From contig CAXTTL010000083.1 of the NCBI GenBank assembly GCA_964247135.1, positions 1 through 18,203 of the forward strand: a stretch of DNA of 18,203 nucleotides. The letters are read 5' to 3'. Below are positions 1-18,202 of this stretch, in pieces. Each line of letters begins with the position of its first letter. The first letter of the stretch is position 1. The position numbers were made by a program, and so were the translations under genes. The notes below the pieces were generated by a model. That model ran no database searches. It saw only the letters and a list, made by a program, of their open reading frames with translations, and had not been told where the DNA came from. The stretch is from an uncultured Deinococcales bacterium (GTDB lineage: Bacteria; Deinococcota; Deinococci; Deinococcales; JAAFIG01).

Positions 1-477
1 GAATTGGGGTGGAAATCCTTGGGCGTGCTCGAGTTGACCGCGCTGCCCAGCATCGACAAGGAACGCTGGGTTTCCTGGGTTCGGGAGGCAGACGTGCTGC
101 TGGTGAACGGCGGCGACGCGCTGTATCTAAGCCACTGGATGCGGGAATCTGGGCTGGCAGACCTCTTGCCGTCGCTCGAGGCGGTCTGGGTGGGGTTGAG
201 CGCTGGCAGCATGGTCATGACCCCCCGCATCGGGCAGGATTTCGTTGGCTGGAAGCCACCCACTGGCGGCGATGAAACGCTGGGGCTGGTCGATTTTTCG
301 ATTTTCCCGCACCTGGATCACGAGATGCTGCCAGAAAACACCATGGCAGACGCGGAACGCTGGGCAGCCACGATCTCGAATCCGGCGTATGCAATTGACG
401 ACGAGACCGCCATCAAAGTGGTCGATGGCAATCTCGAGGTGGTCTCCGAAGGACATTGGAAATTGTTCACGCATTAG
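1..477 (+). CDS. Peptidase E / S51 family (class I glutamine amidotransferase-like), 5'-truncated by the window edge
   Basis: Frame is open from base 1. Motifs GGDALYL, nucleophile elbow GLSAGS, FPHLD and AIDDETA are typical of S51 peptidases. Stop TAG at 475-477. Confidence 0.85.
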   Translation, partial: ELGWKSLGVLELTALPSIDKERWVSWVREADVLLVNGGDALYLSHWMRESGLADLLPSLEAVWVGLSAGSMVMTPRIGQDFVGWKPPTGGDETLGLVDFSIFPHLDHEMLPENTMADAERWAATISNPAYAIDDETAIKVVDGNLEVVSEGHWKLFTH

Positions 478-489
478 GTCGCTGGGTTG

Positions 490-1116
490 TTAAATCGCAA
501 TCAAACCGTGCCTGATTCCCAAATTCACCGCACTGACACGGCTCGAGACGTTCAATTTCGCATAAATCTGGGCGATGTGAAATTTCACGGTGCTTTGGCT
601 GATCTCGAGTTGCTTGGCAATGGATTTGTTGCCCAAACCCTGCGCCAGCGCTTCCAGCACCTCGAGTTCGCGCGGGGTCAGGTGCTCGAGCAGACCGTCC
701 TCAAGGTCGTAATTTGGCTCCAAATGGCGGTTTAAAAGTTGCTCGAGGATGTTTGGGTTCATGACCGTAAAACCTTGCGCGGCGGCGTGGATCGCGGCTT
801 TCAGTTCAGCCTCGGGCGCGTCGGGGGAGACGAGCGCCCAACCGTGCGGGTTGAACTCGAGCAGATCGCTGGCGGCATTGGTTTGGTCGCTGATGAGCAC
901 AATCGCTGGCAATTCGCGGATGGCATTCAAACTCGAAAGGTCGTCGGTGACGATCACGTCCAGGTTTAAAACCTCGAGTGCGTCAACACCCGAGGTTTGT
1001 CCGCTAACTTCAAAATCATTTTCGAGCAGCGCTTTCAAACCCGCCCGCACCGTGCTGGACCGAGCCACAATCATGATTCGCGGCTCGAGTTGGCTGCTGC
1101 GGATTTCGAGCATCAT
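490..1116 (-). CDS. NarL/LuxR-family response regulator with an atypical receiver domain
   Basis: C-terminal LuxR HTH (LTPRELEVLEALAQGLGNKSIAKQLEISQSTVKFHIAQIYAKLNVSSR). N-terminal REC-like fold (RIMIVARS...DVIVTD). ATGA overlap with the upstream protease at 1113-1116. Confidence 0.9.
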   Translation of the reverse strand: MMLEIRSSQLEPRIMIVARSSTVRAGLKALLENDFEVSGQTSGVDALEVLNLDVIVTDDLSSLNAIRELPAIVLISDQTNAASDLLEFNPHGWALVSPDAPEAELKAAIHAAAQGFTVMNPNILEQLLNRHLEPNYDLEDGLLEHLTPRELEVLEALAQGLGNKSIAKQLEISQSTVKFHIAQIYAKLNVSSRVSAVNLGIRHGLIAI

Positions 1117-1961
1117 GCCGCCTGGGGTTTGGCGTCTGGCATGACCAGAACTTGCTGCACTCGCCCGCCGCGCAAAACCCGAAAATCGAGTGGGTTGGCG
1201 GTCTCCAGCAATTCGAGCAGGGTTTCATGGTGTTCCAAAACCTGCCCTTGTACCTCGAGAATCACATCGCCTGTTTGCAAACCGTCCCGGGCGGCTGGGC
1301 TTTGGGCTTCGAGGTTGACGATCATCAGCCGACTGACCTGGCTGCGCTTGAGTGGAATCTGGACGTGTTGCAAACCCACGCCCAAGAACGCTGGTCGTTT
1401 TGCACTCAAAGCCCAATCTCGAGCGGTGTTGCTTGGAATGGCGATGCCCATGTTTGGCATCCAGACCATCGAATTGATGCCGATCAGTGCGCCGCTCGCA
1501 TTTACCAGCGCCCCGCCAGAATTGCCTGGGCGCAAGGTCACATCGGAGCGAATCAAATCTTTTGGTGCACCGCCTCCAGGCACTTGGGTTTTGCCCAGAC
1601 CCGTGACGATGCCGCGCGTTACCAGCCTTTGCCCCCAAGGATGCCCGATGGCAAACACCAATTCACCGATTCGCAACGCGCTCGAGTCTGCCAATTCCAG
1701 TGGCTCGAGATTGGTGTCCACCTCGAGCAGCGCGAGGTCGAGCCGTTTGTTGGTCTCGAGCACTTTGGCTTGATGTTCTCGCCCGTCAAAGCTGCGAACC
1801 TGGACACTTGCGGCATTCCCGACCACGTGGGCGTTGGTCATGACACGGTTATTCGCCCAGACCACGCCACTGCCCGCCCCTCGAGAGGAGACTTCAACCC
1901 GCACCACGGCTTGTTGCACGCGTTCCAGCATTGGTGCTGTCATGCCGAAAAAATCACTCAT
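1113..1961 (-). CDS. HtrA/S1C-type trypsin-like serine protease with PDZ domain (no signal peptide)
   Basis: Triad motifs TNAHVV, RLDLALL and PGNSGGAL. C-terminal PDZ (FLGV...SPAARDGLQTGDVILEV). Start placed at ATG 1961, which overlaps the upstream stop (ATGA). Confidence 0.9.
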   Translation of the reverse strand: MSDFFGMTAPMLERVQQAVVRVEVSSRGAGSGVVWANNRVMTNAHVVGNAASVQVRSFDGREHQAKVLETNKRLDLALLEVDTNLEPLELADSSALRIGELVFAIGHPWGQRLVTRGIVTGLGKTQVPGGGAPKDLIRSDVTLRPGNSGGALVNASGALIGINSMVWMPNMGIAIPSNTARDWALSAKRPAFLGVGLQHVQIPLKRSQVSRLMIVNLEAQSPAARDGLQTGDVILEVQGQVLEHHETLLELLETANPLDFRVLRGGRVQQVLVMPDAKPQAA

Positions 1962-2920
1962 CGTCCGCCCCGTCCGCGTCCCCACCCACCACGTCCTTCG
2001 CCATGTTCGCCGCGTCCTCGTCCATCGCGTTCATTTTGACGCTGTGGGCGTTCGCCAACCGTGACCTTGATCGTCTCGAGTTTGCCACCACGAATCAAAC
2101 TGGCACTGACCGCATCGCCCACGCCAACGCCCGCCAGACCCTCGAGCAAATCGTTCGCATCCTCGAGTTTGTGATCGTTGAGCGCAAGCAGAATGTCGCC
2201 GACCAGAATGCCGGCGTGTTCGGCGGGACTCTCAGACTCGACGCGAATCACCAGCAAGCCAAGTTCCTGATCGCTGACTTTTTTCGATAAGCGCACGGGT
2301 TGCCCAGCCACGCCCAGATAACCGCGTTTGCTGACCTTGCCGTTTTGAATGTTCTCGGCGGCGGTCCAAGCGAGTTGTGCGGGAATCCCCAAACCCACGC
2401 CGCGCATGATGCCCGCGTTGGTCACAGCCAGAACCTCGCCGCTGGCATTGACAATCGCGCCGCCCGAGCAGCCAGGAAATGGCATCGCATCGGTGCGCAC
2501 CACAGCCTCGAGCATCGACCCGCGCCCAAAACGCAAGCCGTGACTGGCGCTGACGATGCCGTGCGATGCCATCACACTGCTCGAGGTTTGGGCGACCATC
2601 AACACCAATTCCCCAACCCGAGCGGCTTGGCTCGAGATTTTCACAGGCTCGAGTTTGAGGTCTGGCACGCGCAACAATGCCAGATCGGTCTGTGGGTCAC
2701 GCCCGATCACGGTCGCCTGGAGTTTGCGACCGTCGGAAGTTTCGATGTGAACCGTTTCCGAACGCTCGAGCACGTGGGCGGTGGTCAATATCAAATCTGG
2801 CGCGTAGACCAAACCGCTGATGGCGGCTCTTGGCGCGTGAACGGTGACGATGCTGGTTTGGACGCCTGCGACGGCATCGGCGAGGGCGGAAGACAAAGCC
2901 GTTAAAGAAGTTTCATTCAT
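1958..2920 (-). CDS. HtrA/S1C-type trypsin-like serine protease with PDZ domain and RGG-rich tail (no signal peptide)
   Basis: Motifs TTAHVL, DPQTDLALL and PGCSGGA. PDZ (GYLGV...SPAEHAGILVGDILLAL). C-terminus GRGRGEHGEGRGGWGRGRGGR. Confidence 0.9.
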   Translation of the reverse strand: MNETSLTALSSALADAVAGVQTSIVTVHAPRAAISGLVYAPDLILTTAHVLERSETVHIETSDGRKLQATVIGRDPQTDLALLRVPDLKLEPVKISSQAARVGELVLMVAQTSSSVMASHGIVSASHGLRFGRGSMLEAVVRTDAMPFPGCSGGAIVNASGEVLAVTNAGIMRGVGLGIPAQLAWTAAENIQNGKVSKRGYLGVAGQPVRLSKKVSDQELGLLVIRVESESPAEHAGILVGDILLALNDHKLEDANDLLEGLAGVGVGDAVSASLIRGGKLETIKVTVGERPQRQNERDGRGRGEHGEGRGGWGRGRGGR

Positions 2921-2926
2921 GCCGCA

Positions 2927-2932
2927 AGTTTA
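2927..2932 (-). promoter_or_regulatory. -10 box (TAAACT) of a leaderless promoter for the protease operon
   Basis: Minus strand reads TAAACT-N6-ATG(2920); no Shine-Dalgarno sequence. Confidence 0.65.
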
Positions 2933-2954
2933 AAGATTCTCGAGCCTCGCCACA

Positions 2955-2993
2955 CCCGCCGTTTGGTCGGGGCGCACCTGTCCGAACGGTCAG
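2955..2993. promoter_or_regulatory. Two candidate NarL-type 7-2-7 operator sites
   Basis: CTGTCCG-AA-CGGTCAG at 2978-2993 (6/7 inverted match) and a more degenerate CCCGCCG-TT-TGGTCGG at 2955-2970, 23 bp apart, upstream of the operon that encodes the LuxR regulator. Confidence 0.4.
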
Positions 2994-3880
2994 TTGGTGT
3001 TTGCCTTCAAAAACGCCAGCGCCGTTTTCCAGGCTGCCAAAGATTCTTGCAACTGCACGCCCTTCAAGGCATCTCGAGTGTTGATGAACCCATGACCAGA
3101 GTTCGGATAGACCTTCAAGGTCACAGGACGCTCGAGTTTGGTCAAGCCATCAAACAAAAATTGCGCCTGCTCGAGCGGAACAATCGTGTCTTTTGCGCCC
3201 TGCAAAATCAGGGTCGGCATGGTCGCAGGGATTTGCGGCAAATAATTTAAGCCGTTGCGAATCGCAAAACTTTGCGGTCTGTCGTTTGGTCCCTGCCCAT
3301 AAGTGTCTTTGGTCAGTTGGTCCTTGCCGAGTTGGTTGGAATCGATCAAATACTGATACCAACGGTAAATGTCCGAGACGCCGTAAGCGTAAACCAACGC
3401 CCGCACATCACGGCTTTTTGCGGCAGCCAACAAACCAATGATCGCCCCGTGCGAGGTGCCCATCATGGCAATGCGTTTGGGATCAACTCGAGCTTGGGTT
3501 TTGAGCCAGTCAATGCCTGCCAGCACATCATCGACCTCGCCCTTCTCGACTTCAACGCGCCCTTCGCTGCCCTCCTCGCCACGGTAGGAACTGCCAAAAA
3601 CGATAAACCCCGCCGCCGCCAGTTCGCGGCAACGTTTTAAGGTCCCGCTCGAGAAACCCGTGACGCCGCCGTGGTTGTACAAGACCGCAGGGGCAACGCC
3701 AGAACCGCTTGGAAACCACACCCGAGCCGTAATCTTGAGTTTCCCTGAAAGGTACGTGATGCGTTCTTCACGCACCCCAGTTTGCGAAACCCCACTCGAG
3801 AAACCTAGCATTGATACAATACAAATCAAAGCCCAAAACCCAAAGGGCGCATGGCGATGCGCCCCTACAAAATTCTTCAC
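2990..3880 (-). CDS. Alpha/beta hydrolase, S9 peptidase / dienelactone hydrolase-like, probably exported
   Basis: NHGG oxyanion motif, GTSHG nucleophile, QGAKDTIV (Asp) and SGHGF (His). Hydrophobic N-terminus. GTG start overlaps the udk stop (GTGA); start is uncertain. Confidence 0.85.
   Translation of the reverse strand: MKNFVGAHRHAPFGFWALICIVSMLGFSSGVSQTGVREERITYLSGKLKITARVWFPSGSGVAPAVLYNHGGVTGFSSGTLKRCRELAAAGFIVFGSSYRGEEGSEGRVEVEKGEVDDVLAGIDWLKTQARVDPKRIAMMGTSHGAIIGLLAAAKSRDVRALVYAYGVSDIYRWYQYLIDSNQLGKDQLTKDTYGQGPNDRPQSFAIRNGLNYLPQIPATMPTLILQGAKDTIVPLEQAQFLFDGLTKLERPVTLKVYPNSGHGFINTRDALKGVQLQESLAAWKTALAFLKANTN
3845..3868 (-). repeat. REP-like element, copy 1 (GTAG-GGGCGCAT-CGCC-ATGCGCCC)
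   Basis: GTAG tetranucleotide followed by a perfect 8-bp stem and 4-nt loop, 8 nt downstream of the udk stop. 21/24 identical to 4979-5002. Confidence 0.75.
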
Positions 3881-5814: not shown

Positions 5815-6054
5815 GAATAACGCAGTTTAGGACTTTTGGAACGGTGCAATTGTGTGGTCGCTCGAGATGCGAAATGACTTTGGTGCAGACTTGTATTTTT
5901 GAAAGTTTTTCTCGAGTGCGAGAGATTGATCTCATCATATTTTTTAAGGCACAAAACCCGACCAAAGTCGATACGCTTCGCATTATTCATTCAGGTTCAG
6001 TTCAGCTTAAAGGTAGAAACTTTAGAAAGTTCAGGATCAACAAAGGAGAACTTC

Positions 6055-7164
6055 ATGAAAAGTCTAAAGATCATCAGCGTGATCGTCTCGAGTGCCTTGG
6101 CACTCAGCCTCAGCGCCTGCAACACCACACCAATCGCCAACGGCAGCGCCCAACTCGTTTCAGGTCCAATCACCGCTCTCAGCGCCAGCAGCCTGACGGT
6201 CAGTGGCAAGACATTTTCGCTGAACGGTGCCGCCGCAAAATCCAGAAGCAAAGCCCCAACCAACGTCAGCATCAACGGTGATGCCGCCAAACCGGCAGCG
6301 CTCAGTGTGGGACAACACGTGACCGTCAAAGCCGACGGTACGGACGCCACCGACGTTGACATCGACCTCGAGCTGAAAGGCACAATTACCACTGTCGATC
6401 CAGTTGGTGGCACCATTGATATTGCGGGTCAGATCGTGATTGTCTCGAGTCTCACCCGCATTGACCTGGGTAACGATGATGATGCCGCACCCAGCACCAC
6501 GCACACCATCAGCGATCTTAAAGCGGGCGATTTTGTCGAAGTCACCGGCACAACCGATCCTGTTACCGGTAACATCACCGCCAGCAAAATCGAAGTCAAA
6601 ACCGACAAGGAAATTGGCGAAGACGGAGATCACAAAGACAACCACATCAAAGGCGCAGTCAGTGGTTTGGTGGCTGGCGCGACCAGCTTCACCCTTGGCA
6701 CGATCACCGTCAACTGCGTTGCACCTTGCACCCTGCCAACAGGCTTAAAAGATGGCGATGTCGTTCATGTTGAAGGCGTGCTCGATGCGACAGGCTTAAT
6801 TTTGACCGCCACAAAAGTGAAACTCGATGGAGAATCCCACAAGCATCCACTCCCAGGCTCGAGCGTTGTTTTGGATCGTAAAATCATGCTGCTTGATGAA
6901 GCCACCAAAACCTTTAAACTCTGCTACTTGACCGTGGATTACTCGACAGCAACCGTGACTGGAACGCTGGCTACCAAAGCTCGAGTTAAAGTTGAAGGCG
7001 TGGTTGATGCCACCGACGCAACTTTGGTTCATGCGACCACCGTCACTGTTTTAGCCGCCGATGAACCCAACGATGACGGCAGTCACGGCGATCACGGGCA
7101 TCATCACGGCGCAAATGGTGGCGTTCCTGGAACTGGCGGCAACTCAGAAAACCCTGGCAAGTAA
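6055..7164 (+). CDS. Lipoprotein with repeated DUF5666-like beta domains and a His-rich tail
   Basis: SD AAGGAG before ATG 6055 and lipobox LSA-C. Repeated units (LSVGQHVTVKA, LKAGDFVEVTG, LKDGDVVHVEG, LATKARVKVEG). C-terminal DDGSHGDHGHHHG. Confidence 0.8.
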   Translation: MKSLKIISVIVSSALALSLSACNTTPIANGSAQLVSGPITALSASSLTVSGKTFSLNGAAAKSRSKAPTNVSINGDAAKPAALSVGQHVTVKADGTDATDVDIDLELKGTITTVDPVGGTIDIAGQIVIVSSLTRIDLGNDDDAAPSTTHTISDLKAGDFVEVTGTTDPVTGNITASKIEVKTDKEIGEDGDHKDNHIKGAVSGLVAGATSFTLGTITVNCVAPCTLPTGLKDGDVVHVEGVLDATGLILTATKVKLDGESHKHPLPGSSVVLDRKIMLLDEATKTFKLCYLTVDYSTATVTGTLATKARVKVEGVVDATDATLVHATTVTVLAADEPNDDGSHGDHGHHHGANGGVPGTGGNSENPGK

Positions 7165-7215: not shown

Positions 7216-7908
7216 TTAAAACTGCAAAGTTCCCTCATACAATGCCCGCCCAACAATCGCGCCTTCAATCCCGACACGCTCGAGCAAATCCAAATCCTTG
7301 CTGCCTGCCACACCGCCACCCGCCACCAAACGCCCAGCCCAAGCCGCCCGAATTTCCTCGAGCGGGCGCTCGTCCAAACCCTCGAGCGTGCCGTCACGGG
7401 TGACATCGGTGTAAATCAGGGTGCGCACGCCCTGCGCCCAGACTTTTGCGGCAAGGTCTGTGGCGTGCGTGTGACTGGTTTGTGCCCAACCATTCACCGC
7501 CACCAAACCGTCACGCGCATCAATGCTGACAATCACCGCGCCCACCCCGAAAGACTCGAGGATGCTGTCCACAATTTCAGGATTCGTGACCGCCACCGTG
7601 CCGATCACGACCTGTTGTACGCCACCCTTGAGCAAGATTTTTGCGGCATCTAAACTCCGCACCCCGCCGCCAACCTCAACGGGAACATTCAACGTTTTGG
7701 CAATCTCGAGAATGATGCTGCGGTTTTCACCCGCGCCCGTCGCTGCATCCAAATCCACCAGATGCACCAAGCCCGCGCCCTTGGACACCCAGTGCTTTGC
7801 CGCCTCGAGCGGATGCTCAAAATACACAGTCTCGAGTTTCGGATCGCCCTTAAACAACCTAACGGCACGACCACGTTGAATGTCCACGCAAGGAATCACT
7901 TCGACCAT
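7216..7908 (-). CDS. hisA: ProFAR isomerase (histidine biosynthesis)
   Basis: VIPCVDIQRGRAVRL, HLVDLDAA, VEVGGGVRS, YTDVTRDGTLEG and GAIVGRALY. True start ATG 7908 with TACGCT 6 nt upstream; the extension to 8121 in the ORF track is spurious. Confidence 0.96.
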   Translation of the reverse strand: MVEVIPCVDIQRGRAVRLFKGDPKLETVYFEHPLEAAKHWVSKGAGLVHLVDLDAATGAGENRSIILEIAKTLNVPVEVGGGVRSLDAAKILLKGGVQQVVIGTVAVTNPEIVDSILESFGVGAVIVSIDARDGLVAVNGWAQTSHTHATDLAAKVWAQGVRTLIYTDVTRDGTLEGLDERPLEEIRAAWAGRLVAGGGVAGSKDLDLLERVGIEGAIVGRALYEGTLQF

Positions 7909-9895: not shown

Positions 9896-10043
9896 GAGGT
9901 CACTCGAGATTCTAGATTTTCTATTTCATTTCCACAAAAACACTCTCGAGTACGAACTGATTCGAGTTGCAGCGTTCCAAAACCGATTTAAGACCTAGAA
10001 TTTCAACATGCCTTTTAACCTCGAGGCTCGAGAAGGAGAAATG

Positions 10044-10451
10044 ATGAAACGTTTCAAAATGATTTCGTTGTTTGCTTTGATCGCCATTTCGTTCGCCGCC
10101 TGTGCCCCAAACGAAGCCATTCCGTTGCTCAGTCGTTTTGATCTGGCTTTGATCAATGATTTTGCAAAACGCTCCGACGTCAGCACCATTGACTGCCCAA
10201 AAGACCTGATCTCGAGGTTGACCAGCGACGGCACACGGATTGTTTGCGGCACCACCAGCGATGGTCTTGAAGATTTTGGAATCAAGAGCGAACGGGCGGC
10301 AAAAGCCTTGGGTGCAAGTGAATCCAACGACTGGCAACTGACCAAAAACAATCAATTTTTGCGCGGTTACTTTTGGGAGTCCGAAGACGAAGTCGATGTT
10401 TATTACCAGCCTGTTTCGTCCGGCGGTGGTCAGGTGATCATCAATTACTAA
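10044..10451 (+). CDS. Hypothetical lipoprotein
   Basis: SD AAGGAG at 10033-10038. Signal MKRFKMISLFALIAISFAA-C and two further Cys. In-frame alternative starts at 10041 and 10008 (TAGAAT-N6-ATG). Confidence 0.75.
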   Translation: MKRFKMISLFALIAISFAACAPNEAIPLLSRFDLALINDFAKRSDVSTIDCPKDLISRLTSDGTRIVCGTTSDGLEDFGIKSERAAKALGASESNDWQLTKNNQFLRGYFWESEDEVDVYYQPVSSGGGQVIINY

Positions 10452-10483
10452 AGGTTGTAAGATCACATCACAAACCAAAATCC

Positions 10484-11383
10484 ATGAACGATTCCCGATT
10501 CCCACCCGAACTCATCACAGACCTTGAACCATTCATAGGCAAGTTGCTCGAGGTCGTGCCAATCGGTGGTGGAATGACCAACCGAAATTTTCGTCTCGAG
10601 ACCGAAAGAGGACGGTTCATGCTGCGCTTGGCAGGCGAACGCACGGCACTTTTGGGCATCAACCGCCATCACGAATTTGCCAGCGCCAAAATCGCCCATC
10701 AACTCGAGGTTGGGGTCGAAGCGATAGCCTATTTTGAGCCTCATGCGGCGATCCTGACGCGGTTTATTGGGGCAGAAACATTGACGGCTGTGACAGCCAA
10801 AACGCACCTCGAGCAACTGGTCAAAACCATAAAACGCTATCACCAAGCCCCCGTATTTCCAGCACACTTTAATCCATTTCAAACCGTCAGAAACTATCAC
10901 AGCCTCGCGCTCGAGTACGGCGTGAAATTCCCTCAAGATGTCGCTCGGGTTCTGACCCAGATGACGCACATCCAAACTGCGCTGCAACCCCACGCTCGAG
11001 AATGCCCATGTCACAACGACCTGCTGCCCGCCAATTTGTTGTTTGACGGCTCGAGCCTTTTTATTGTGGACTGGGAATACGCGGGCAACGGCAACCCGTT
11101 TTTTGACCTTGGCAACCTTGCCGTCAACCTCGAGCTTGATGCCGTGCAATGCCAGCACTTGCTCGAGATGTACTTTGGAAGCTCGAGTCCAGAACTCCTG
11201 GCGCAACTTCACCTCATGCGGCTGGCGTCGGATTTGCGCGAAGCCTTCTGGGGATTTTTGCAGGCAGGCATTTCGAGCATCGAATTTGATTTTATGGGCT
11301 ACGGCGAAAAGCACCTCGAGCGGTTTAGGCAGAATGTGGCGACAGAAGAATTTGAGCGGTGGTTAACGGTGCTACGGACTTAA
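10484..11383 (+). CDS. Choline/ethanolamine kinase (APH/ChoK phosphotransferase family)
   Basis: GGMTNRNF, GINRHHE, Brenner motif CHNDLLPANLL and IVDWEYAGNGNPFFDLGNL. Confidence 0.9.
   Translation: MNDSRFPPELITDLEPFIGKLLEVVPIGGGMTNRNFRLETERGRFMLRLAGERTALLGINRHHEFASAKIAHQLEVGVEAIAYFEPHAAILTRFIGAETLTAVTAKTHLEQLVKTIKRYHQAPVFPAHFNPFQTVRNYHSLALEYGVKFPQDVARVLTQMTHIQTALQPHARECPCHNDLLPANLLFDGSSLFIVDWEYAGNGNPFFDLGNLAVNLELDAVQCQHLLEMYFGSSSPELLAQLHLMRLASDLREAFWGFLQAGISSIEFDFMGYGEKHLERFRQNVATEEFERWLTVLRT
11306..11373 (+). repeat. 68-bp direct repeat, copy 1 (3' end of the kinase gene)
   Basis: 63/68 identical to 12205-12272 by manual alignment. Confidence 0.9.
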
Positions 11384-11712
11384 CTGACTGCAAAATCCAT
11401 GAGTTTTCGAGCATCAGGAGGTTGAAAACCAAGCACAATATCCGATTTTGGAACACCAGCCTCGAGCAGCAAACTGGTAATGCTTGGCAATGTGAAATCT
11501 TGTTGCACCCAGAATTTATGATCTTTCAAATCTACATGTAGCAAAACGTCATGCACACGCCCATCTGGTTTCCAACCAACGCTTAACACTTGATAATGCC
11601 CACGTTCCTTATCAATGACAACTTGAGATTCAATCAGACCATTTGACCTGGCATCATCTTGATAACTTAAGAATAACGTCTCTAAAAGCGTGGGGTAATC
11701 TACTCGATCCAT
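11380..11712 (-). CDS. xisI: XisI-family protein
   Basis: VIDKERGHYQVLSVGW, LLHVDLKDHKFWVQQDFT and LLEAGVPKSDIVLGFQPP are characteristic XisI motifs. Overlaps the end of xisH. Confidence 0.92.
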   Translation of the reverse strand: MDRVDYPTLLETLFLSYQDDARSNGLIESQVVIDKERGHYQVLSVGWKPDGRVHDVLLHVDLKDHKFWVQQDFTLPSITSLLLEAGVPKSDIVLGFQPPDARKLMDFAVS

Positions 11713-12115
11713 TGCACGACCTCCTCTAAATCATGGTCAAAAACAAGAATGCGTAAGTTAAACCGAACAATCATCTTTTGTGTAAATTCCAATTTCGAGA
11801 ATGACTTCCAAACCGCTTGAGGAACAGCCAAATACAAAACCCTGTTCGGTTCTTCAGATTCCAAAGCCAGTACATACGACAGGTACTGCCCAACGGCATC
11901 CTGAAAGGCTGACAGAGCCGAAATCTCGAGAAAACTCTTGACTTCCACCGCAATTTTTTTGTGTCCCGTTCCGCAATCAACAACCCTTCGGCACGAATAT
12001 CCACGAACATTCGCACACCACCAAATACCAGTGCGGTATTTTCGGCTGTAATGACCCAGCCATCGCGCTCGAGCGCGTGTTTTACGGCATTGTGGTATTT
12101 GTCGAGCGCTGGCAC
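11700..12115 (-). pseudogene. xisH: XisH-family PD-(D/E)XK-fold protein split by a frameshift in an A7 run
   Basis: The N-half MPALDKYHNAVKHALERDGWVIT...AERDTKK and the C-half IAVEVKSF...AVGQYLSY...LYLAVP...VVQWIE are in different frames, joined at the T7 run 11954-11960. Confidence 0.85.
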
Positions 12116-12121
12116 AGCCAC

Positions 12122-12150
12122 AGCCTACAAAGATTTTTTGCAATTGACAA
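12122..12150 (-). promoter_or_regulatory. Leaderless promoter of xisH-xisI
   Basis: Minus strand reads TTGTCA-N17-TAGGCT-N6-GTG(12115). Confidence 0.6.
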
Positions 12151-12204
12151 CACGCGGCAGATTGGGGTTTCTCGAGCGTCCAGTTTGACCGTATGTGATA
12201 CCTT

Positions 12205-12272
12205 GAAAAACACCTCGAGCGGTTTGGGCAGAATGTGGCGACAAAAGAATTTGAGCGATGGGTAACGGTGCT
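12205..12272 (+). repeat. 68-bp direct repeat, copy 2 (orphan duplicate of the kinase 3' end)
   Basis: Translates EKHLERFGQNVATKEFERWVTVL(EQH*), versus EKHLERFRQNVATEEFERWLTVL(RT*) in the gene. Confidence 0.9.
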
Positions 12273-12290
12273 CGAGCAACACTGAGCCTT
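12271..12290 (+). repeat. ~20-bp imperfect direct repeat, left copy
   Basis: CTCGAGCAACACTGAGCCTT versus CTCGAGCAACA-TCAGCCTT at 13860-13878 (18/20). Confidence 0.65.
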
Positions 12291-12321
12291 CTCGAGATAT
12301 TCAGAGCGTACACTCTGGTTT

Positions 12322-13839
12322 ATGACAGGTGAGCGCCCTCAAATTGATACGCGTCGAGTTCTGTTTTGGGTGCTGATTTTTCTTGGTTTTGCCGTTGTTG
12401 GATACGTGTATCGCTGGTGGAGCGGAGATGCGCGAGATGTTAGCGTGTTTACCACTCCTCATTTTAATGTTTTCATTGGTCCTCGAATAACACGAACTGG
12501 GCTTGAAATGATGTTGATTTCGTTGTTGGTGCTGGTCGTTTCTGGATGGTTGAAATTTTCAAATCAAACTCGAGTTCAACTTCAAACAGTGATCAGAATG
12601 TATGGTCTGTATTTGCTTATGGCAATCAACCCACCTGTACTGGCAACCATTGCTTGGCTATCACCTGAAATTGGTGAAGGTTGGGTCGGTTTAGTTTTCT
12701 TTATTTTGATAGAGATTGTCCTCGAGTTGATTGTGATTGCCTTCCTTTTTCGATCTGTCTTTAAGTTTGTGGGTTCTTTACTTATTGCTTGCTTGGCTTT
12801 GCCTGCCGCATTCTGGGGTTTGTGGAGTGGTTTTTTCTTCGAGTCTTTTCGACCCGCTATTACTGAATCTTGCTGGGCAGACCTGAATCTTCAACTTCCT
12901 AGCAGTGAACTGGCACTTCGGACATATAAACGCTGGGCTAGCCGTCGTGATTCCATTCCAGAAGCCACATCGCTGCCAGCGGTGGATTACATCACCAAAT
13001 TAACTGCGGTATCACCAAACGAACTCGAGAATGCGTGTCAGGATAAACAAGCCTTTAGTTTTCAGGCAGCCCATTATGTGCTCTGGTTTGAATTGGAATT
13101 TTATGCGAAAGATGGATTTGCCTACAAAGCGCAAGCACAGGTGACTTTCTCCGAGGATTTAGACCTCAAAGTGCTTGGAGGATGGAAATTTCAGAAAGAT
13201 AAAAATGCAAAGCCCAATGGTTTATTTGGAAGTAAACGCATGGGAGAGTTAGGAACCATTGGGCAACAACTCGAGCCACTGTTTCAAGTTGTGCCTGAAT
13301 TGCGGCAAAGTCCATGTGTTGGATTTACTCGACCAAAATCAACAACGAATAATTCAAGAATTGTTGCTGATTTTGACACCTCAAGCACCTTGAAAAACTT
13401 GTACCTCATTCGATCAGGAAAGCTCGAGCGTGCCTGGAATCAAGATCAAATTCGGTCTTCATTGCAACGCATTGCCCAGCGACTTGGATATGGAAAAGTT
13501 CAAACTTGGAATGAGCAGCGAATTTTTGAAAACGGAATTGTTTCTTGTTTTTCGGACAAACCTTATTTTGGTTTGCAAAGGCTCGAGGATCGTTATGTGG
13601 CATACATCCCACTGATTGAAGTGACGACAGGGACGAAGAAATTCAATGTTGTTTTGTCGTTTTTAACCAACAACAAACCAAGCTTGAGTATTTTCAAACT
13701 GTCAAAAACCAAGCCTTCTTTTGAAGAACGAATCTACGAATTTCTTCCAACCGAAGATGACATTCCTTGGAACAATGTTTCGACCAACGATCTCGAGTAC
13801 GGCGGCTCGCGGTTGATTTCAAAAAAAACGACAAAATAA
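12322..13839 (+). CDS. Hypothetical membrane protein (about 5 N-terminal TM segments plus a large soluble domain), AT-rich
   Basis: 505-aa ORF with a hydrophobic N-terminal third. TACACT (12309-12314)-N7-ATG. No family recognised. Confidence 0.8.
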   Translation: MTGERPQIDTRRVLFWVLIFLGFAVVGYVYRWWSGDARDVSVFTTPHFNVFIGPRITRTGLEMMLISLLVLVVSGWLKFSNQTRVQLQTVIRMYGLYLLMAINPPVLATIAWLSPEIGEGWVGLVFFILIEIVLELIVIAFLFRSVFKFVGSLLIACLALPAAFWGLWSGFFFESFRPAITESCWADLNLQLPSSELALRTYKRWASRRDSIPEATSLPAVDYITKLTAVSPNELENACQDKQAFSFQAAHYVLWFELEFYAKDGFAYKAQAQVTFSEDLDLKVLGGWKFQKDKNAKPNGLFGSKRMGELGTIGQQLEPLFQVVPELRQSPCVGFTRPKSTTNNSRIVADFDTSSTLKNLYLIRSGKLERAWNQDQIRSSLQRIAQRLGYGKVQTWNEQRIFENGIVSCFSDKPYFGLQRLEDRYVAYIPLIEVTTGTKKFNVVLSFLTNNKPSLSIFKLSKTKPSFEERIYEFLPTEDDIPWNNVSTNDLEYGGSRLISKKTTK

Positions 13840-13859
13840 TCCTGAAGTGCCCAAGGCTT

Positions 13860-13878
13860 CTCGAGCAACATCAGCCTT
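13860..13878 (+). repeat. ~20-bp imperfect direct repeat, right copy
   Basis: CTCGAGCAACATCAGCCTT; overlaps the stop codon of the convergent regulator. Confidence 0.65.
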
Positions 13879-14542
13879 GCGTTGGCGCAAGCGCAATGTG
13901 CGCGATATAACTTCCGCTTCCGTCTTTGCCCTTATACCGCTCGAGCACCTCAAAAAGCTCGAGTTGTAAGGCTTTGGCATCGTTAAAATCGAGCCGCAGT
14001 TGATCTTCCCACAAGGACAAAATCGCGGGTGCGGTCGGCTCGAGCGGGTTGATGTTAATCGGTTTGAGCGGGTGTGGTCCGTGCCGCACAACCAGTTTGC
14101 CGTCTTCGTTTTGCAACACGCTGATGCCAATTTCTTTGGCTGTTTTGACGTTGACCATCTGCATGGCGGCTTCCAAAAAATGCTCGAGAAACCGCTTGAA
14201 CAACGGTTCAAATTCGCGCAGCAGCATGTCGGCTGGGCTGGCAAAATGCGTGGCATCGAACGGCACAAAAAACACTTCGGCAACGGCGCTGTACTGTTTG
14301 ATGCTGCGTCCTCGGCGGGGTGTTTGTTCAATGATCTCGAGGAATCCAAGTTTGATCAGGCGTTTAATTTGATAAAGCAGCGTGTTCAGGCTGATGCCCA
14401 TTTCTTGGGCGACTTGATCGGCGCTGCGAACCCGTCCAACGAATGGCTCGAGAAACCTTAAATTGTTCGGCTCGAGCAGTTCTGCGGCGCGTGCGGGGTC
14501 GTGCAGCTCGAGTATTTCTCTACTACGAAAACTGTTAAACAT
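13871..14542 (-). CDS. Winged-helix (ArsR/HTH_20-like) transcriptional regulator
   Basis: LRFLEPFVGRVRSADQVAQEMGISLNTLLYQIKRLIKLGFLEI...RRGRSIKQY. TAATCT (14550-14555)-N7-ATG. Divergent from the ABC operon. Confidence 0.8.
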   Translation of the reverse strand: MFNSFRSREILELHDPARAAELLEPNNLRFLEPFVGRVRSADQVAQEMGISLNTLLYQIKRLIKLGFLEIIEQTPRRGRSIKQYSAVAEVFFVPFDATHFASPADMLLREFEPLFKRFLEHFLEAAMQMVNVKTAKEIGISVLQNEDGKLVVRHGPHPLKPININPLEPTAPAILSLWEDQLRLDFNDAKALQLELFEVLERYKGKDGSGSYIAHIALAPTQG

Positions 14543-14601: not shown

Positions 14602-15342
14602 ATGTTGCACCAAACCTTAATGCCGCCGTCGAGTCCCAAATCAACTCTCAAGCCACTCATTTCGCTGTCCAAGGTCAGCAAGGTTTTTAACACGCAGTCG
14701 GGCGATTTCACGGCGCTACAACACATCAATCTCGAGGTGAAAGCGGGAGAATTCGTTTCGATTGTCGGGAAGTCCGGCAGCGGAAAATCCACGCTGATCA
14801 ACATCATGACCGGCATCGATTCGCCAAGCTCTGGGCAGGTTATCGTGGCAAACAGCGCGGTTCATGCGCTCAACCAAGAGCAACTGGCGGTCTGGCGCGG
14901 CAAAAGTGTGGGCGTGATCTTTCAGTTTTTTCAACTGCTGCCCACCCTGACCGTTGCCGAAAACGTCATGCTGCCAATGGATTTTTGCAACACCTACCCG
15001 CCAGCAGATCGCCGCAAACGCGCACTGGGCTTGCTCGAGAAACTTGGCATCCTCGAGCAAGCCGATAAACTCCCGAGTGACCTTTCAGGTGGTCAGCAAC
15101 AACGTGCCGCCATCGCTCGAGCGCTGGCAAATGACCCGCCGTTGTTGGTGGCGGACGAACCCACGGGCAACCTCGATTCCAAAACCTCTGAAGATGTGAT
15201 GCAGCTTTTTGCGGCGTTGGTGAAAGAGGGCAAGACCGTGGTGATGGTCACGCACGAACGCGACTTTGGACGGTATTTCACGCGCTGCATCAACTTGGCG
15301 GATGGTGTGATTCTGCCTGAACAACTCGAGGTTGGCGTATGA
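14602..15342 (+). CDS. ABC transporter ATP-binding protein, LolD/MacB/FtsE type
   Basis: Walker A GKSGSGKS, Q-loop IFQFFQLL, signature LSGGQQQR, Walker B LLVADEPTGNLD and H-switch VTHE. Confidence 0.97.
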   Translation: MLHQTLMPPSSPKSTLKPLISLSKVSKVFNTQSGDFTALQHINLEVKAGEFVSIVGKSGSGKSTLINIMTGIDSPSSGQVIVANSAVHALNQEQLAVWRGKSVGVIFQFFQLLPTLTVAENVMLPMDFCNTYPPADRRKRALGLLEKLGILEQADKLPSDLSGGQQQRAAIARALANDPPLLVADEPTGNLDSKTSEDVMQLFAALVKEGKTVVMVTHERDFGRYFTRCINLADGVILPEQLEVGV

Positions 15343-17750
15343 ATATCAGCCCTCGTTGGAAGAAATTATTAGGCGATGTCAACGCCACCCAAGGGCGCAC
15401 GCTGATGATGATTTTGGCAATCGCGGTTGGCGTGTTCGGCGTTGGCACGATTTTGAACGCCTACGCGATTTTGACCCGCGAGATCAAACAAAATTACATC
15501 AGCACCAACCCCGCATCGGCATTGCTCGAGTTGGACAAGGTTGATGATGCGCTGGTGCACGCGGTTCGTTTGCGCCCAGAGATTGCGGACGCCGAAGCCA
15601 GTTCGACCATCACAGCAAGGCTCGAGTTTAAACCAAACGAATGGATGCCGTTGTTGCTGTTTGTGATTAAAGATTTTAAGACCATGCGAATCAATACCTT
15701 TACACCCGAGGCGGGCGCGTTCCCACCACCCACGGGTTCGATGCTGCTCGAGCGTGAGGCACTGCGATTGGTGAAGACCAAAATTGGGACTTCATTGCGG
15801 GTGGAAACCCCGAACGGTGCAAAAACGGGGTTGCTGATTTCTGGTACAGTCCACGACCCTGGTTTAGCTCCAGCAGGACAGGAGCAAACCGCATACGGCT
15901 ACATCACCCCAGCCACGCTCGAGCAACTGAATGAGGCGAAAACCTTGCACCTGCTGAAAATCATTGTCAAAAACCAGCCGCTCGAGTCTCGAGCCGTAGA
16001 TAACACGGTGGCGGGTCTTGCGGTTTGGTTGAAAGCGCAAGGGCGGGTGGTCGATGAAATTCGCATTCCGCCCCCCGCCAAGCATCCGCATCAAACGCAA
16101 ATGACCGCGATCCTAACCATGCTGCTAATTTTTAGCCTGATGGCGCTCGTCTTAAGCGCGATTTTAACCGCCACCATGATTGGTTCAATGCTGGCGCAAC
16201 AAGTGCGGCAAATTGGCGTGATGAAAGCCATTGGCGCACGATCAATCCAGATTGCCAGTTTGTACCTCACTTTAATTGCCGTCATGGGTTTGATTGCCGT
16301 GGGTGTCGGCGTGCCGCTTGGCATTCTGGCTGGACGTGGTTTCTCGAGCGTGATTGCCGAACTGCTGAATTTTAAGATTAACAGCAGCGCCATTCCAGTT
16401 TGGATTTACGTCTTGCAAATCTGCCTCGGCATTCTGGTACCGCTTGCCATTGCCGTCTTCCCAATTTTGAGTGCCACCCGCATCACCGTTCGGGAAGCCA
16501 TCAACGATTTCGGCTCGAGTCGCAACATGATTTCGCTGCCCTGGTTTGACCGATTGCTCGAGACACTGCGTTTTGACCGAACCTTGATCCTGTCGATTCG
16601 CAACACCTTCAGACGCAGAGGACGTCTGATTCTGACCTTGGGACTGCTGGCGGCGGCTGGAGGCATGTTCATGACCAGCCTGAACGTCAAGAACGCCTGG
16701 CAACAAGCCCTGACCGATGCCGCGTCTGACCGTCATTACGACCTCGAGATTCGCTTGAACCATCCGACTTCAGAAGATAAAGCCCTCAAAGCAATCTCGA
16801 GTGTCCAAGGCGTGAAAACCGTCGAAGCTTGGAGTACATCCCCCGCTGCCATCGCTCGAGCCGACGGTCTGGACATTGTGCGCACCTATCCCGACGGTGG
16901 TCATGCCAGTTTTAGCTTGCGCTCCGTGCCGCCTCAGACCAAATTCGTACAACTCGAGATGTTCGCTGGACGCTGGCTCGAGGCGAGCGACAGCAACTCG
17001 GTGGTACTCAACCACACCGCCAAAGCCTTCTTCCCAAGCGCCAAGATCGGCGACACCATCAACCTGAATGTCGAAGGTCGCGCCGTGGAGTACAAACTGA
17101 TCGGCGTCGCTCGAGAAATCCTGACGCCAGCCAGCGCTTACGTGACACCGAGCACGTTTGTCGATGCCACAGGGTTTTTGGGTCAAATTAACGCCGTGCG
17201 AATCGTCCTCGAGAATAAAAGTCTCGCCAGCATGAACAGTGTTGGGAAAGCCATCGAACGCAACCTCGAGCGTCAAGGCATCAGCATCAAAGTCAGCATC
17301 TCAGAAGGTCGTTTGGATGGCGCATTAAACGGTCACGTTTACATTCTGATTTTCGCCCTGATCGCCATGAGCATCCTGATGGCAACCGTCGGCATCCTCG
17401 GCTTGATGTCCACCATGAGCACCAGTGTCATTGAGCGCACTCGAGAATTTGGCATCATGCGAACCATCGGCGGGCAGTCCATGACCGTGCTGCGCAACAT
17501 CATCAGCGAAGGAATTTTTATTGGCATTTTAAGTTGGTTTATTGCCATTGTGCTTTCGCTACCGTTGTCGGCATTTGTTGGCAATTTAATAGGCACGCTC
17601 GCGTTTCGCCTGCCACTGCCATTGGTGCTTTCACCCAGCGCCATGCTGTTGTGGCTGGGCTTGATCGTTGTCGGTGCAATTGCCGCCAGCAGTTACCCCG
17701 CCTGGAAAGCATCACAACTGACCATCCGCGAAACCCTCGCCCACGTTTAA
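15339..17750 (+). CDS. ABC transporter permease, duplicated MacB/FtsX-type
   Basis: Two MacB_PCD plus FtsX halves (QQVRQIGVMKAIGA; ERTREFGIMRTIGG). ATGA overlap with the ATPase gene. Confidence 0.93.
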   Translation: MNISPRWKKLLGDVNATQGRTLMMILAIAVGVFGVGTILNAYAILTREIKQNYISTNPASALLELDKVDDALVHAVRLRPEIADAEASSTITARLEFKPNEWMPLLLFVIKDFKTMRINTFTPEAGAFPPPTGSMLLEREALRLVKTKIGTSLRVETPNGAKTGLLISGTVHDPGLAPAGQEQTAYGYITPATLEQLNEAKTLHLLKIIVKNQPLESRAVDNTVAGLAVWLKAQGRVVDEIRIPPPAKHPHQTQMTAILTMLLIFSLMALVLSAILTATMIGSMLAQQVRQIGVMKAIGARSIQIASLYLTLIAVMGLIAVGVGVPLGILAGRGFSSVIAELLNFKINSSAIPVWIYVLQICLGILVPLAIAVFPILSATRITVREAINDFGSSRNMISLPWFDRLLETLRFDRTLILSIRNTFRRRGRLILTLGLLAAAGGMFMTSLNVKNAWQQALTDAASDRHYDLEIRLNHPTSEDKALKAISSVQGVKTVEAWSTSPAAIARADGLDIVRTYPDGGHASFSLRSVPPQTKFVQLEMFAGRWLEASDSNSVVLNHTAKAFFPSAKIGDTINLNVEGRAVEYKLIGVAREILTPASAYVTPSTFVDATGFLGQINAVRIVLENKSLASMNSVGKAIERNLERQGISIKVSISEGRLDGALNGHVYILIFALIAMSILMATVGILGLMSTMSTSVIERTREFGIMRTIGGQSMTVLRNIISEGIFIGILSWFIAIVLSLPLSAFVGNLIGTLAFRLPLPLVLSPSAMLLWLGLIVVGAIAASSYPAWKASQLTIRETLAHV

Positions 17751-17775
17751 ATTTCTCGAGCTTGAAGGAGTTGTT

Positions 17776-17889
17776 ATGAATAAGAATGTTGTTCGGATTG
17801 TGGTTGTGGTCGTATCGGTTTTGGGTTTGGGATTGATCGCGCACCTGACCAATTTTGTGGGTTTGATTCGACAATTGCACGGCGGGTAA
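17776..17889 (+). CDS. Small 37-aa single-TM peptide (not in the ORF track)
   Basis: SD AAGGAG at 17765-17770. Translation MNKNVVRIVVVVVSVLGLGLIAHLTNFVGLIRQLHGG*. Lies between the permease stop and the operon terminator. Confidence 0.8.
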   Translation: MNKNVVRIVVVVVSVLGLGLIAHLTNFVGLIRQLHGG

Positions 17890-17912
17890 GGCGGTTTTGG
17901 TGGTTAAGATTG

Positions 17913-17943
17913 GTGCTCGAGTGACAAGCTCGAGCACTTTTTT
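17913..17943 (+). terminator. Intrinsic terminator of the ABC operon
   Basis: Stem GTGCTCGAG / CTCGAGCAC with loop TGACAAG, followed by TTTTTT. Confidence 0.85.
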
Positions 17944-17966
17944 GATTTTGTGAAACTCGAGAGAAC

Positions 17967-18084
17967 CTAAATCACATCAGCAAAGCCACGCAAGAATAAA
18001 GCCGTTCGTTTCAATCCTTGAATTTCAAAAACCTCGAGCATGGAAATCAGGCTTTTGACCGACGATTGCCTGGTACAGGGTCAT
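17967..18084 (-). pseudogene. Probable remnant of a PIN-domain toxin gene
   Basis: MTLYQAIV (ATG 18084) and MLEVFEIQGLKRTALFLRGFADVI* (18041-17967) are in different frames. They resemble the two ends of the PIN protein normally found after excisionase-like HTH genes; resemblance judged by eye. Confidence 0.4.
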
Positions 18085-18202
18085 CCTTGCCGTAACCCAT
18101 CCGCAATTCTTGGGCTTGTTCAACCAATTCGCGCAAAGCCTCCTCTCGAGCGCGATCCAGTTTCAGTTTAAAACCAAGCACATCCTCGAGCGCAATCCGA
18201 CG
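18047..18202 (-). CDS. Excisionase-family (HTH_17) DNA-binding protein, C-terminal part; runs off the window
   Basis: Own translation: RRIALEDVLGFKLKLDRAREEALRELVEQAQELRMGY(GKDDPVPGNRRSKA*), matching the typical C-terminus of this family. Confidence 0.75.
   Translation of the reverse strand, partial: RRIALEDVLGFKLKLDRAREEALRELVEQAQELRMGYGKDDPVPGNRRSKA

Follow-up and report, generated by a model that had tools for sequence, protein, structure and literature searches.

The closest described parallel to the element reported here is HIP1 (GCGATCGC), the highly iterated palindrome (HIP) of cyanobacteria, together with the alternate HIPs that Elhai listed in 2015; CTCGAG has no occurrence in the accessible text of that paper (PMC4390886; for all publications cited here, our statements refer to the accessible portions). 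HIP1 sites are conserved, which Xu, Lawrence and Durand read in 2018 as the result of selection, and their distribution is periodic along the chromosome at 10-90 kb (PMC5861425). HIP1 has now been proposed to be an uptake watermark (PMC13756078), and a 2024 bioRxiv preprint concerns HIP1-dependent transformation. The HIP puzzle has been confined to cyanobacteria for three decades. Here we analyze the hexamer CTCGAG in contig CAXTTL010000083.1 of assembly GCA_964247135.1, from an uncultured Deinococcales bacterium; this whole stretch of 18,203 bases is called the window below. An initial annotation, made from the letters of the window, had proposed that CTCGAG behaves there like a HIP, and we found such behavior genome-wide, in all codon phases, in genes on both strands and in non-coding DNA.

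Two other systems are useful for comparison. The DNA uptake sequences (DUS) of Neisseria and the uptake signal sequences (USS) of Pasteurellaceae are non-palindromic words of 9-12 bases with a frequency of about one per kb, many of them paired as inverted copies in terminators; DNA that carries such a word is taken up preferentially by a competence machinery that has a specific receptor. In Escherichia coli, very-short-patch repair by Dcm and Vsr leaves CCWGG enriched and CTAG depleted; the effect is small and acts on T:G mismatches at methylated C. Hyper-abundance of CTCGAG in Deinococcota was not reported in the literature that we searched, which consisted mainly of openly available articles without their supplementary tables.

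The window contains exactly 145 copies of CTCGAG (8.0 per kb), in agreement with the approximate manual count in the initial annotation. The first copy is at 28-33 and the last at 18185-18190. In 200 dinucleotide-preserving shuffles of the window there was a mean of 3.56 copies (standard deviation 1.82; largest number 10), and none of the 200 reached 145. Based on gene calls made from open reading frames (ORFs), 118 of the 145 copies are genic and 27 are outside called genes. The genic copies are in all three phases (86 as CTC|GAG, 15 as xCT|CGA|Gxx and 17 as xxC|TCG|AGx), with 68 in minus-strand and 50 in plus-strand genes. GAGCTC and GTCGAC, which had been proposed as control words, have no copies in the window, as predicted, and GGCC has none. 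The copies referred to in the text are as follows.

28..18190, unstranded: array of 145 dispersed CTCGAG (3.56 expected), 118 genic and 27 not
6087..6092, plus strand: copy in phase xxC|TCG|AGx (GTC TCG AGT, Val-Ser-Ser) in ORF 5899-7161
6367..6372, plus strand: copy in phase CTC|GAG (Leu-Glu, translation LEL) in ORF 5899-7161, a DUF5666 protein
6980..6985, plus strand: copy in phase xCT|CGA|Gxx (GCT CGA GTT, Ala-Arg-Val) in ORF 5899-7161
10020..10032, unstranded: two copies 7 bases apart, outside gene calls
15981..15993, unstranded: two copies 7 bases apart, within the FtsX-type permease gene 15339-17747
2939..2944, unstranded: intergenic copy between genes ending at 2920 and 2993
12171..12296, unstranded: four intergenic copies (12171, 12214, 12271, 12291) between the XisH-like gene and ORF 12322-13836
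17755..17961, unstranded: four copies (17755, 17916, 17929, 17956) 3' of the permease gene's stop codon

The claim that all three phases occur within a single gene was borne out: the copies at 6367, 6087 and 6980 are all in ORF 5899-7161, in the codon contexts described. Both of the tandem pairs that had been pointed out, at 10020/10027 and 15981/15988, are present. Of eleven sites described as intergenic, nine (2939, 5861, 9903, 9945, 12171, 12291, 13860, 17755 and 17956) are outside gene calls. The other two, 5911 and 7944, fall inside the longest ORFs at their positions (5899-7161 and 7219-8121), in the N-terminal parts. The true starts of these two ORFs may be further in; the Pfam match of HisF begins only at residue 74.

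The enrichment is genome-wide. The window corresponds to contig C83 of genome G000, which has 5,091,702 bases in 386 contigs and is 84% complete; all genomes of the window's family are metagenome bins. G000 has 33,925 copies of CTCGAG where its base composition predicts 1,369, and no other hexamer is as common. The genome-wide comparison of observed and expected hexamers that the initial annotation had suggested thus gave a 24.8-fold excess (approximately 6,660 copies per Mb), with no copy of the control word GAGCTC. Among the 64 palindromic hexamers, the second most enriched was TTTAAA, at only 3.7-fold, and 52 of the 64 were under expectation, 28 of them under one tenth of it. Of the TCGA tetramers in the genome, 62% sit within CTCGAG.

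The density of CTCGAG in G000 was 6.57 per kb in coding DNA and 7.28 per kb in non-coding DNA. After removal of 20 bases from either end, long intergenic stretches held 2,869 copies, compared to 83, 212 and 946 under Markov models of orders 1, 2 and 3, and the intergenic enrichment genome-wide was at least 30-fold. There were 29,236 genic copies: 18,277 in phase CTC|GAG, 4,308 in xCT|CGA|Gxx and 6,651 in xxC|TCG|AGx. We swapped synonymous codons within each gene, keeping the protein sequence and the codon usage of each gene (five replicates), and recovered 4,071 copies, so that the observed number is a 7.2-fold excess. This excess was 5.7-fold for CTC|GAG and 14.9- and 11.4-fold for the other two phases, respectively. 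Shuffling the order of codons gave 1,735 copies (16.9-fold excess, five replicates). The initial annotation had argued that codon or dipeptide bias is insufficient, and had named two outcomes that would speak against its proposal: loss of the enrichment under a model preserving dipeptide and codon usage, and no excess in intergenic DNA genome-wide. Neither was found, because the excess outlives the shuffle and intergenic DNA is enriched.

The exact hexamer is the unit of enrichment, because the flanks carry little information and no octamer dominates. Over the 33,925 copies, the most frequent flanking bases were G at position -1 (0.39) and C at position +1 (0.38), and all base frequencies from -10 to +10 were within 0.18-0.39. 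No single octamer stood out: of the top 20 octamers by observed/expected ratio, 19 hold the whole of CTCGAG and one holds five of its six bases. A longer repeat, such as a repetitive extragenic palindromic (REP) or miniature inverted-repeat transposable element (MITE)-like element, was ruled out by the same base frequencies, which leave no shared sequence beyond the core.

Copies are dispersed over the genome with a mean spacing of 148 bases and a coefficient of variation (CV) of 0.96. Spacings below approximately 18 bases were under-used, at 0.05-0.8 of expectation; a spacing of 7 bases, as in the tandem pairs of the window, was found 87 times compared to 217 expected. There was a 3-base periodicity in the spacing, due to the phase preference. 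Each of the 825 five-kb windows of G000 had at least eight copies, and the largest gap was not greater than 3 kb. No clear similarity in content was seen among the least dense five-kb windows. Density was approximately flat across gene starts and ends, except for a two-fold peak in the 40 bases after stop codons, where the first two 20-base bins had 13.5 and 10.5 copies per kb compared to approximately 6.7 elsewhere (genome-wide), and for dips in the last 20 bases before the stop codon and the first 20 after the start codon. The 66 tRNA genes found with ARAGORN had 10 copies in 5,129 bases, compared to 34 at the genome density and approximately 1.4 from base composition.

Other palindromes of G000 are conspicuous by their near-absence. 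GAGCTC, the reverse of CTCGAG, has no copies in 5.09 Mb, compared to 1,369 expected and 1,690 in the synonymous shuffles. There is one copy of GGGCCC, three of CGGCCG, four of AGGCCT, five of CGTACG and seven of GGATCC, and the tetramer GGCC has 380 copies compared to 24,454 expected. The near-absence of GAGCTC, GGCC and the other palindromes is restriction avoidance of unusual completeness; such avoidance could come from nucleases without a protecting methylase.

To determine how CTCGAG changes over time, we compared G000 region by region with three congeners (G001-G003) that have 84-89% DNA identity to it. The four genomes form a nearly star-like tree (pairwise identity 0.864-0.882 over 26,943 four-way columns), and four regions were compared, one being the window and the others belonging to contigs C2, C3 and C5; P values calculated on overlapping hexamers overstate significance. 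Site conservation, one of the checks suggested for the initial annotation, was above that of control hexamers both within the genus and across genera. Of 1,035 aligned sites, 853 were fully conserved against the three congeners, compared to 45-48% of other hexamers. Across genera of the family, with 69-76% DNA identity, 50 of 116 sites were shared by position, compared to 17% of other hexamers, and there was turnover, with 32 sites present only in the relative.

The protection is confined to the hexamer and covers all of it. Divergence inside sites relative to outside was 0.25 in non-coding DNA and 0.35, 0.52 and 0.53 at third, first and second codon positions, respectively. When third-position and non-coding bases of the window were considered, identity was 0.94 inside the hexamer and 0.73-0.81 from the first flanking base outward, on a background of 0.75, and each of the six positions was protected (0.94-0.98). 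All six classes of substitution were reduced inside sites to 0.30-0.59 of background, changes at T:A pairs the most (0.30-0.31) and C-to-T the least (0.59). A regionally low mutation rate near sites was ruled out: there was no drop in divergence beside them, and protection ended at the edge of the hexamer. Repair of a single type of mismatch, as by Vsr, was also ruled out, given that all positions and all substitution classes were protected.

We estimated rates of gain and loss at non-coding sites and third codon positions, assigning ancestral states by majority rule. A motif base was lost 136 times, compared to 441.7 expected (ratio 0.31), and this ratio was alike in all four lineages. Words one base away from CTCGAG (one-off words) changed to the motif 20 times, compared to 10.6 expected (ratio 1.88), and changed at the same position to another base eight times, compared to 13.3 expected (ratio 0.60). 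CTCGAG is thus held by a directional fixation bias, with losses approximately three times slower and changes from one-off word to motif approximately twice as fast as neutral. One-off neighbors of CTCGAG are not depleted genome-wide (0.8-3.2 times expectation). Some new sites appear to have arisen in larger steps: of 30 sites unique to one genome, seven differ from all three orthologues at three or more of the six bases, compared to 4.3% of other hexamers (binomial P = 2e-4), in a sample that is small and in which alignment errors near indels are possible. Multi-base change may be one route by which sites are added.

One region was not usable for the congener comparison. The first 20 kb of contig C1 of G000 (C1:1-20000) has no match in the three congeners at E ≤ 1e-50, and contains 116 copies of CTCGAG (5.8 per kb). 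This region is either DNA from a relative that shares the word or a place where sites accumulated fast.

The abundance of CTCGAG has left a mark on the proteins of G000. Leu-Glu is the most over-used dipeptide, with 23,814 occurrences compared to 10,152 expected (ratio 2.35), compared to a ratio of 1.01 for Glu-Leu, and 77% of the Leu-Glu dipeptides (18,277 of 23,814) are spelled CTCGAG. In word-poor relatives the Leu-Glu ratio was 1.09 (120-kb sample of G014) and 1.28 (156-kb sample of G191), and in G249, an independently rich genome, it was 2.47 (39-kb sample). The pressure is strong enough to have added approximately 13,600 Leu-Glu dipeptides to the proteome, or about three per gene.

We surveyed 301 Deinococcota genomes, with no claim resting on G261, which is unpublished. 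The state of CTCGAG differed widely among lineages.

Family f1 (the window's family), 11 of 11 genomes rich: CTCGAG at 4.3-6.7 per kb, GAGCTC 0-568 copies
Genus g7, 100 genomes of 1.9-6.7 Mb: CTCGAG 26-1,010 copies, avoided; GAGCTC 9-1,208 copies
Genus g9 (approximately 2 Mb), 31 genomes: CTCGAG 1,455-2,803 copies, GAGCTC 1,113-2,680, no asymmetry
Genera g12-g14, 29 genomes: CTCGAG at 1.4-3.5 per kb, GAGCTC fewer by approximately 2- to 40-fold
Many genera of family f2: CTCGAG at approximately 2-2.8 per kb, GAGCTC few (8,868 and 73 copies, respectively, in G201)

A word that is hyper-abundant in the window's family is a restriction-type target in genus g7, where a 120-kb sample of G014 had two copies compared to 41 expected. 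Genus g36 holds both states. Two of its genomes are rich, with 7.0 (G249) and 8.6 (G306, 58% complete) CTCGAG per kb and 30 and 2 copies of GAGCTC, respectively, and a third species (G191) is plain, with 0.3 CTCGAG per kb and 384 copies of GAGCTC. Gain of the trait, its loss, or both must have occurred repeatedly, because the rich G249 is as distant from G000 as the plain G191 (approximately 55% and 53% amino-acid identity, respectively, in tblastx segments) and lacks the GGCC avoidance of G000. The initial annotation had concluded that this lineage has its own system. The HIP-like signal in the lineage stands, and the restriction to one lineage was too narrow: several Deinococcota lineages outside the family have CTCGAG as well, at a density equal to that of the family or below it, and the trait recurs in several families of the phylum.

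The nearest named relatives of the window's HisF were three records labeled 'MAG: Deinococcales bacterium' with 83-96% identity, followed by Trueperaceae and Thermus/Deinococcus-group bins with 54-58% identity. These relatives bear out the Deinococcota affiliation that the initial annotation had assumed; the G000 assembly has no 16S rRNA gene. Five loci of the latter bins had a weaker excess, with 44 sites compared to approximately 4.8 expected. Viral contigs were scanned for loci with three copies of CTCGAG near each other, which gave at least 120 loci; the dense matches came from contigs of high GC content, and most of these were rich in GAGCTC as well, unlike the signature of this lineage. 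Four IMG/VR loci among the matches listed (L289, L192, L201 and L248) have 58-69% G+C, 4-6 CTCGAG per kb and no GAGCTC; these contigs may be phages of other CTCGAG-rich hosts.

Our preferred explanation is that CTCGAG is a genuine, lineage-wide iterated palindrome of this uncultivated Deinococcales family that acts at the level of DNA, and we put its probability at roughly 0.6. We have little doubt that CTCGAG is a real and maintained DNA-level signal, and we are moderately inclined to attribute the maintenance of sites to selection on a reader rather than to conversion bias. A putative sequence-specific factor would read duplex CTCGAG, and selection through that factor would produce the fixation bias. 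The role that we favor is that of a dense tag for 'self-DNA' that would serve DNA exchange, recombination or repair, as is now proposed for HIP1; by analogy, CTCGAG could be a self-tag or have a role in uptake or recombination, although we offer this tentatively. Methylation of the sites is possible and, judging from gene content, would not be required.

Several observations weigh against this explanation. No reader protein for CTCGAG was found in our analyses, and the functional step is one that we infer. The divergence data cannot tell selection from a conversion bias that favors the motif. A 6-base palindrome at 7 copies per kb is unlike known uptake sequences in form, and the spacing of sites is near-random, with no regular array evident. 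The gene set used for G000 consists of 4,691 ORF-based calls covering 87% of the genome and does not come from a gene finder. Among the four congeners, sites absent from one genome only outnumbered sites present in one only by 65 to 30 (two-sided binomial P = 4e-4); for G000 alone the numbers were 16 and 13, its assembly being less fragmented than the other three. The word may be eroding in this genus, or the fragmented assemblies may give false losses. Of 93 one-off words on which three genomes agreed, only one had become CTCGAG in the fourth. These 93 words are probably constrained for other reasons, and the conclusion that there is no drive at all, drawn from this number, is too strong, with gains 1.9 times neutral at unconstrained positions. 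Finally, the measured bias between gain and loss is approximately 6-fold, less than the shift in the motif/one-off ratio, which is approximately 40-fold. Therefore, either past pressure was stronger, or long branches blunt the estimate, or extra routes add sites.

The alternative explanation that survives best is centered on methylation, as Elhai proposed for HIP1 (PMC4390886). In this model, an orphan methyltransferase specific for CTCGAG or TCGA marks the sites, and methyl-dependent repair, replication control or regulation creates and keeps them. There is precedent for it: every HIP genome in Elhai 2015 had a matching methyltransferase (PMC4390886), CTCGAG carries 5-methylcytosine in Halorubrum (PMC8112702), and CTCGAG is a methylated motif common to genomes of hot-spring communities (bioRxiv 10.64898/2026.06.24.734251). 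That C-to-T is the least suppressed change inside sites (0.59 compared to 0.30-0.49 for the others) would fit hypermutable modified cytosines. However, the A and T positions are protected equally to or better than C and G.

The gene content of these genomes gave no support to the orphan methyltransferase that the initial annotation had suggested looking for. G000 has at least 10 methyltransferase-like genes, which together with its 84% completeness leaves room for such an enzyme. PF01555 genes lie at five places, and PF00145 is represented by two genes; in addition, there are three large PF07669 proteins and a type I system on contig C169. However, all six small candidates were patchy among 21 relatives, with orthologues of 50% identity or more in at most three other genomes each. 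PF01555 had no match in the rich genome G011 (a single contig, 94% complete, 23,515 sites) and only a marginal partial match in G297. The cytosine-5 family PF00145 was not found in searches of three of five rich genomes (G008, G013 and G201, of which G013 and G201 are 98-99% complete). The PF07669 proteins of approximately 500 residues, matched in 19 of 21 relatives, were rejected as candidates, being type I HsdM with HsdS and HsdR adjoining and being present in poor genomes too. No methyltransferase family or orthologue group common to the rich genomes was found among those searched. These negative results come from incomplete bins, enzyme specificity cannot be read from sequence, and PF07669- or PF02384-type (type I or IIG) enzymes are everywhere. 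We consider it unlikely that methylation explains the word.

Three of the PF01555 places deserve separate mention. The genes at C4:2-397 (minus strand) and C207:3-824 (plus strand) of G000 appear to be halves of one methylase gene split across contig ends, with an overlap of approximately 45 nearly identical residues; the pair reflects either an assembly break or two close paralogues. At C189:4859-5632 (minus strand) there is a gene for a 258-residue PF01555 methylase that has no CTCGAG in 774 bases (approximately 5 expected). It is probably a recent arrival, because it has no close orthologue in 20 relatives and no CTCGAG.

A nuclease of the XhoI family was found in one relative, in this arrangement.

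G015, C1:73699-77256 (locus L054): XhoI-family nuclease (ORF 1198-2136 of the locus, plus strand) and convergent PF01555-type methylase of 340 residues with an SPPY motif (ORF 2073-3095, minus strand)

The two genes presumably form a restriction-modification pair for CTCGAG. PF04555, the family of the XhoI nuclease, had a match in one of 21 relatives (G015) and in none of 13 genomes of the window's family, and on that count we exclude an XhoI-type system there, although the bins are incomplete. The methylase adjacent to the nuclease in G015 has no close relative in G000: the only one has 25% identity, and is itself a gene with no CTCGAG and no close orthologue in the relatives.

A second alternative is that CTCGAG has no function and is the product of molecular drive, in which a bias in repair or gene conversion (a very-short-patch-like process or a cycle of nuclease and repair) writes and restores the word without benefit to the cell. 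The gains at 1.9-fold and losses at 0.31-fold of neutral are the signature of any fixation bias, conversion included, the excess of multi-base differences among new sites (7 of 30) could mean multi-base events, and the 116 sites in the 20 kb without congener matches are also in line with drive. However, mismatch-specific repair such as that by Vsr would not protect all six substitution classes and all positions, divergence does not drop regionally beside sites, and one-off neighbors are not depleted, with only one of 93 conserved one-off words converted. In addition, no candidate enzyme follows the trait, and approximately 13,600 extra Leu-Glu replacements would have to be tolerated without benefit. 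Drive without function is therefore distinctly improbable.

A third alternative is that the copies are binding sites for an abundant nucleoid or chromosome-organizing protein, the reading that Xu et al. favored for HIP1 in 2018 (PMC5861425). The even coverage, with at least eight sites in every five-kb window and no gap greater than 3 kb, is in keeping with this role, conservation is alike in coding and non-coding DNA, and the rarity of copies less than approximately 18 bases apart would suit a protein footprint. However, the spacing is otherwise near-random by a short-range analysis, most of the 386 contigs being shorter than 10-90 kb, and G191 manages with 0.3 copies per kb compared to 7-8.6 in its congeners. 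In addition, we know of no nucleoid protein with strict 6-base specificity. An organizing protein seems to us slightly less probable even than drive.

Finally, that the word is a by-product of a preference for the Leu codon CTC and the Glu codon GAG, or of a longer repeated element, has next to no chance of being correct: although 62% of genic copies are in the Leu-Glu phase, and although the high-GC genus g9, where CTCGAG and GAGCTC are both common in similar numbers, presents the pattern of a pure codon effect, this explanation is rejected by a non-coding density that equals the coding density, by an excess that outlives both shuffles, by the lack of any GAGCTC in G000 (the same two codons, 1,690 in shuffles), by codon usage outside the motif, where CTC makes up 15% of Leu codons and GAG 32% of Glu codons, and, for the longer repeat, by the near-random flanks.

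Over the phylum, the trait is graded and reversible, with lineages that are very rich, moderately rich, plain or avoiding, and the rich and plain congeners in genus g36 provide a natural on/off contrast for the responsible genes. A more specific proposal is that CTCGAG is the recognition word of a self-DNA system (uptake, recombination or defense) of long standing in Deinococcota, which congeneric species can have switched on or off, which works without a dedicated methyltransferase, and which gains new sites partly by multi-base change. We regard this proposal as speculative and, as a whole, rather doubtful. If it were true, the contrast within g36 would be a direct route to the reader protein and to a first mechanistic answer to the 30-year-old HIP question. 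Several of the moderately rich lineages are represented by complete genomes, possibly from cultures, and the question is therefore open to direct experiment. Apart from mechanism, the pressure on proteins has consequences for modeling how proteins and codons evolve, and for binning these uncultured and widespread bacteria by composition.

The genes of the window itself, by Pfam, encode an S51 peptidase, a LuxR-type regulator, two HtrA-like proteases, an alpha/beta hydrolase, a uridine kinase, Fpg, HisF, PadR, a phosphotransferase, an XisH-like protein, and an ABC transporter with its FtsX-type permease. As the initial annotation had stated, no responsible enzyme is encoded there: the Pfam search of the window's genes gave no methyltransferase and no nuclease. 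The two HtrA-like genes (1113-2920, minus strand; trypsin-like domain plus PDZ) are adjoining, overlapping paralogues and follow the LuxR-type regulator gene. Positions 8000-14000 have a G+C content of 0.45-0.49, compared to 0.53-0.58 elsewhere in the window, and CTCGAG is frequent there too. This part contains the XisH-like gene (11700-12143) with a small neighbor (11383-11712), and three ORFs without a Pfam match (8346-9524, 9921-10505 and 12322-13839). A scan of the window for inverted repeats turned up only the CTCGAG palindromes themselves.

Among known systems, Dcm/Vsr is a precedent for repair, tied to a methylated palindrome, shifting word frequencies genome-wide. However, at CTCGAG all positions and substitution classes are protected, one-off neighbors are undepleted, and cytosine-5 methylases were not found in three of the five CTCGAG-rich genomes searched. 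The XhoI/PaeR7I restriction-modification systems have CTCGAG as their recognition site; an XhoI-family nuclease with an adjoining PF01555 methylase is present in one relative, G015, and the 100 genomes of genus g7 avoid the word as expected of a restriction target. In contrast, CTCGAG is 25-fold enriched in the window's family, and the nuclease family was found in none of 13 of its genomes.

Like DUS and USS, CTCGAG is a short word found genome-wide in and between genes, common to related species and able to shape peptides. DUS and USS are also enriched just after genes, as is CTCGAG in its two-fold peak within 40 bases past stop codons. CTCGAG differs from them in form, having 6 bases, being palindromic and occurring at approximately 7 per kb.

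The most extensive likeness is to HIP1 and the alternate cyanobacterial HIPs, in spite of clear differences. CTCGAG is found in another phylum, in a Deinococcales rather than a cyanobacterial host, it is a hexamer and HIP1 an octamer, and it is denser, at approximately 6,660 copies per Mb compared to 300-2,700 per Mb for HIP1 (Table 2 of PMC4390886). It has a measurable effect on proteins (Leu-Glu 2.35-fold). A matching methyltransferase, the one firm correlate of HIP1 (PMC4390886), was not seen with CTCGAG, in bins that are incomplete and with enzymes whose specificity is unreadable from sequence. Both words are lineage-wide with exceptions inside the lineage. Like the HIPs, CTCGAG is palindromic and GC-rich, and it is more over-represented than any other word of its genome; it occurs between genes and, in all phases, within them, beyond what codon usage explains, and it is conserved between related genomes above background. 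As a second, independent case of an iterated palindrome, denser and with another word in another phylum, CTCGAG shows that the phenomenon is general and not a cyanobacterial oddity.

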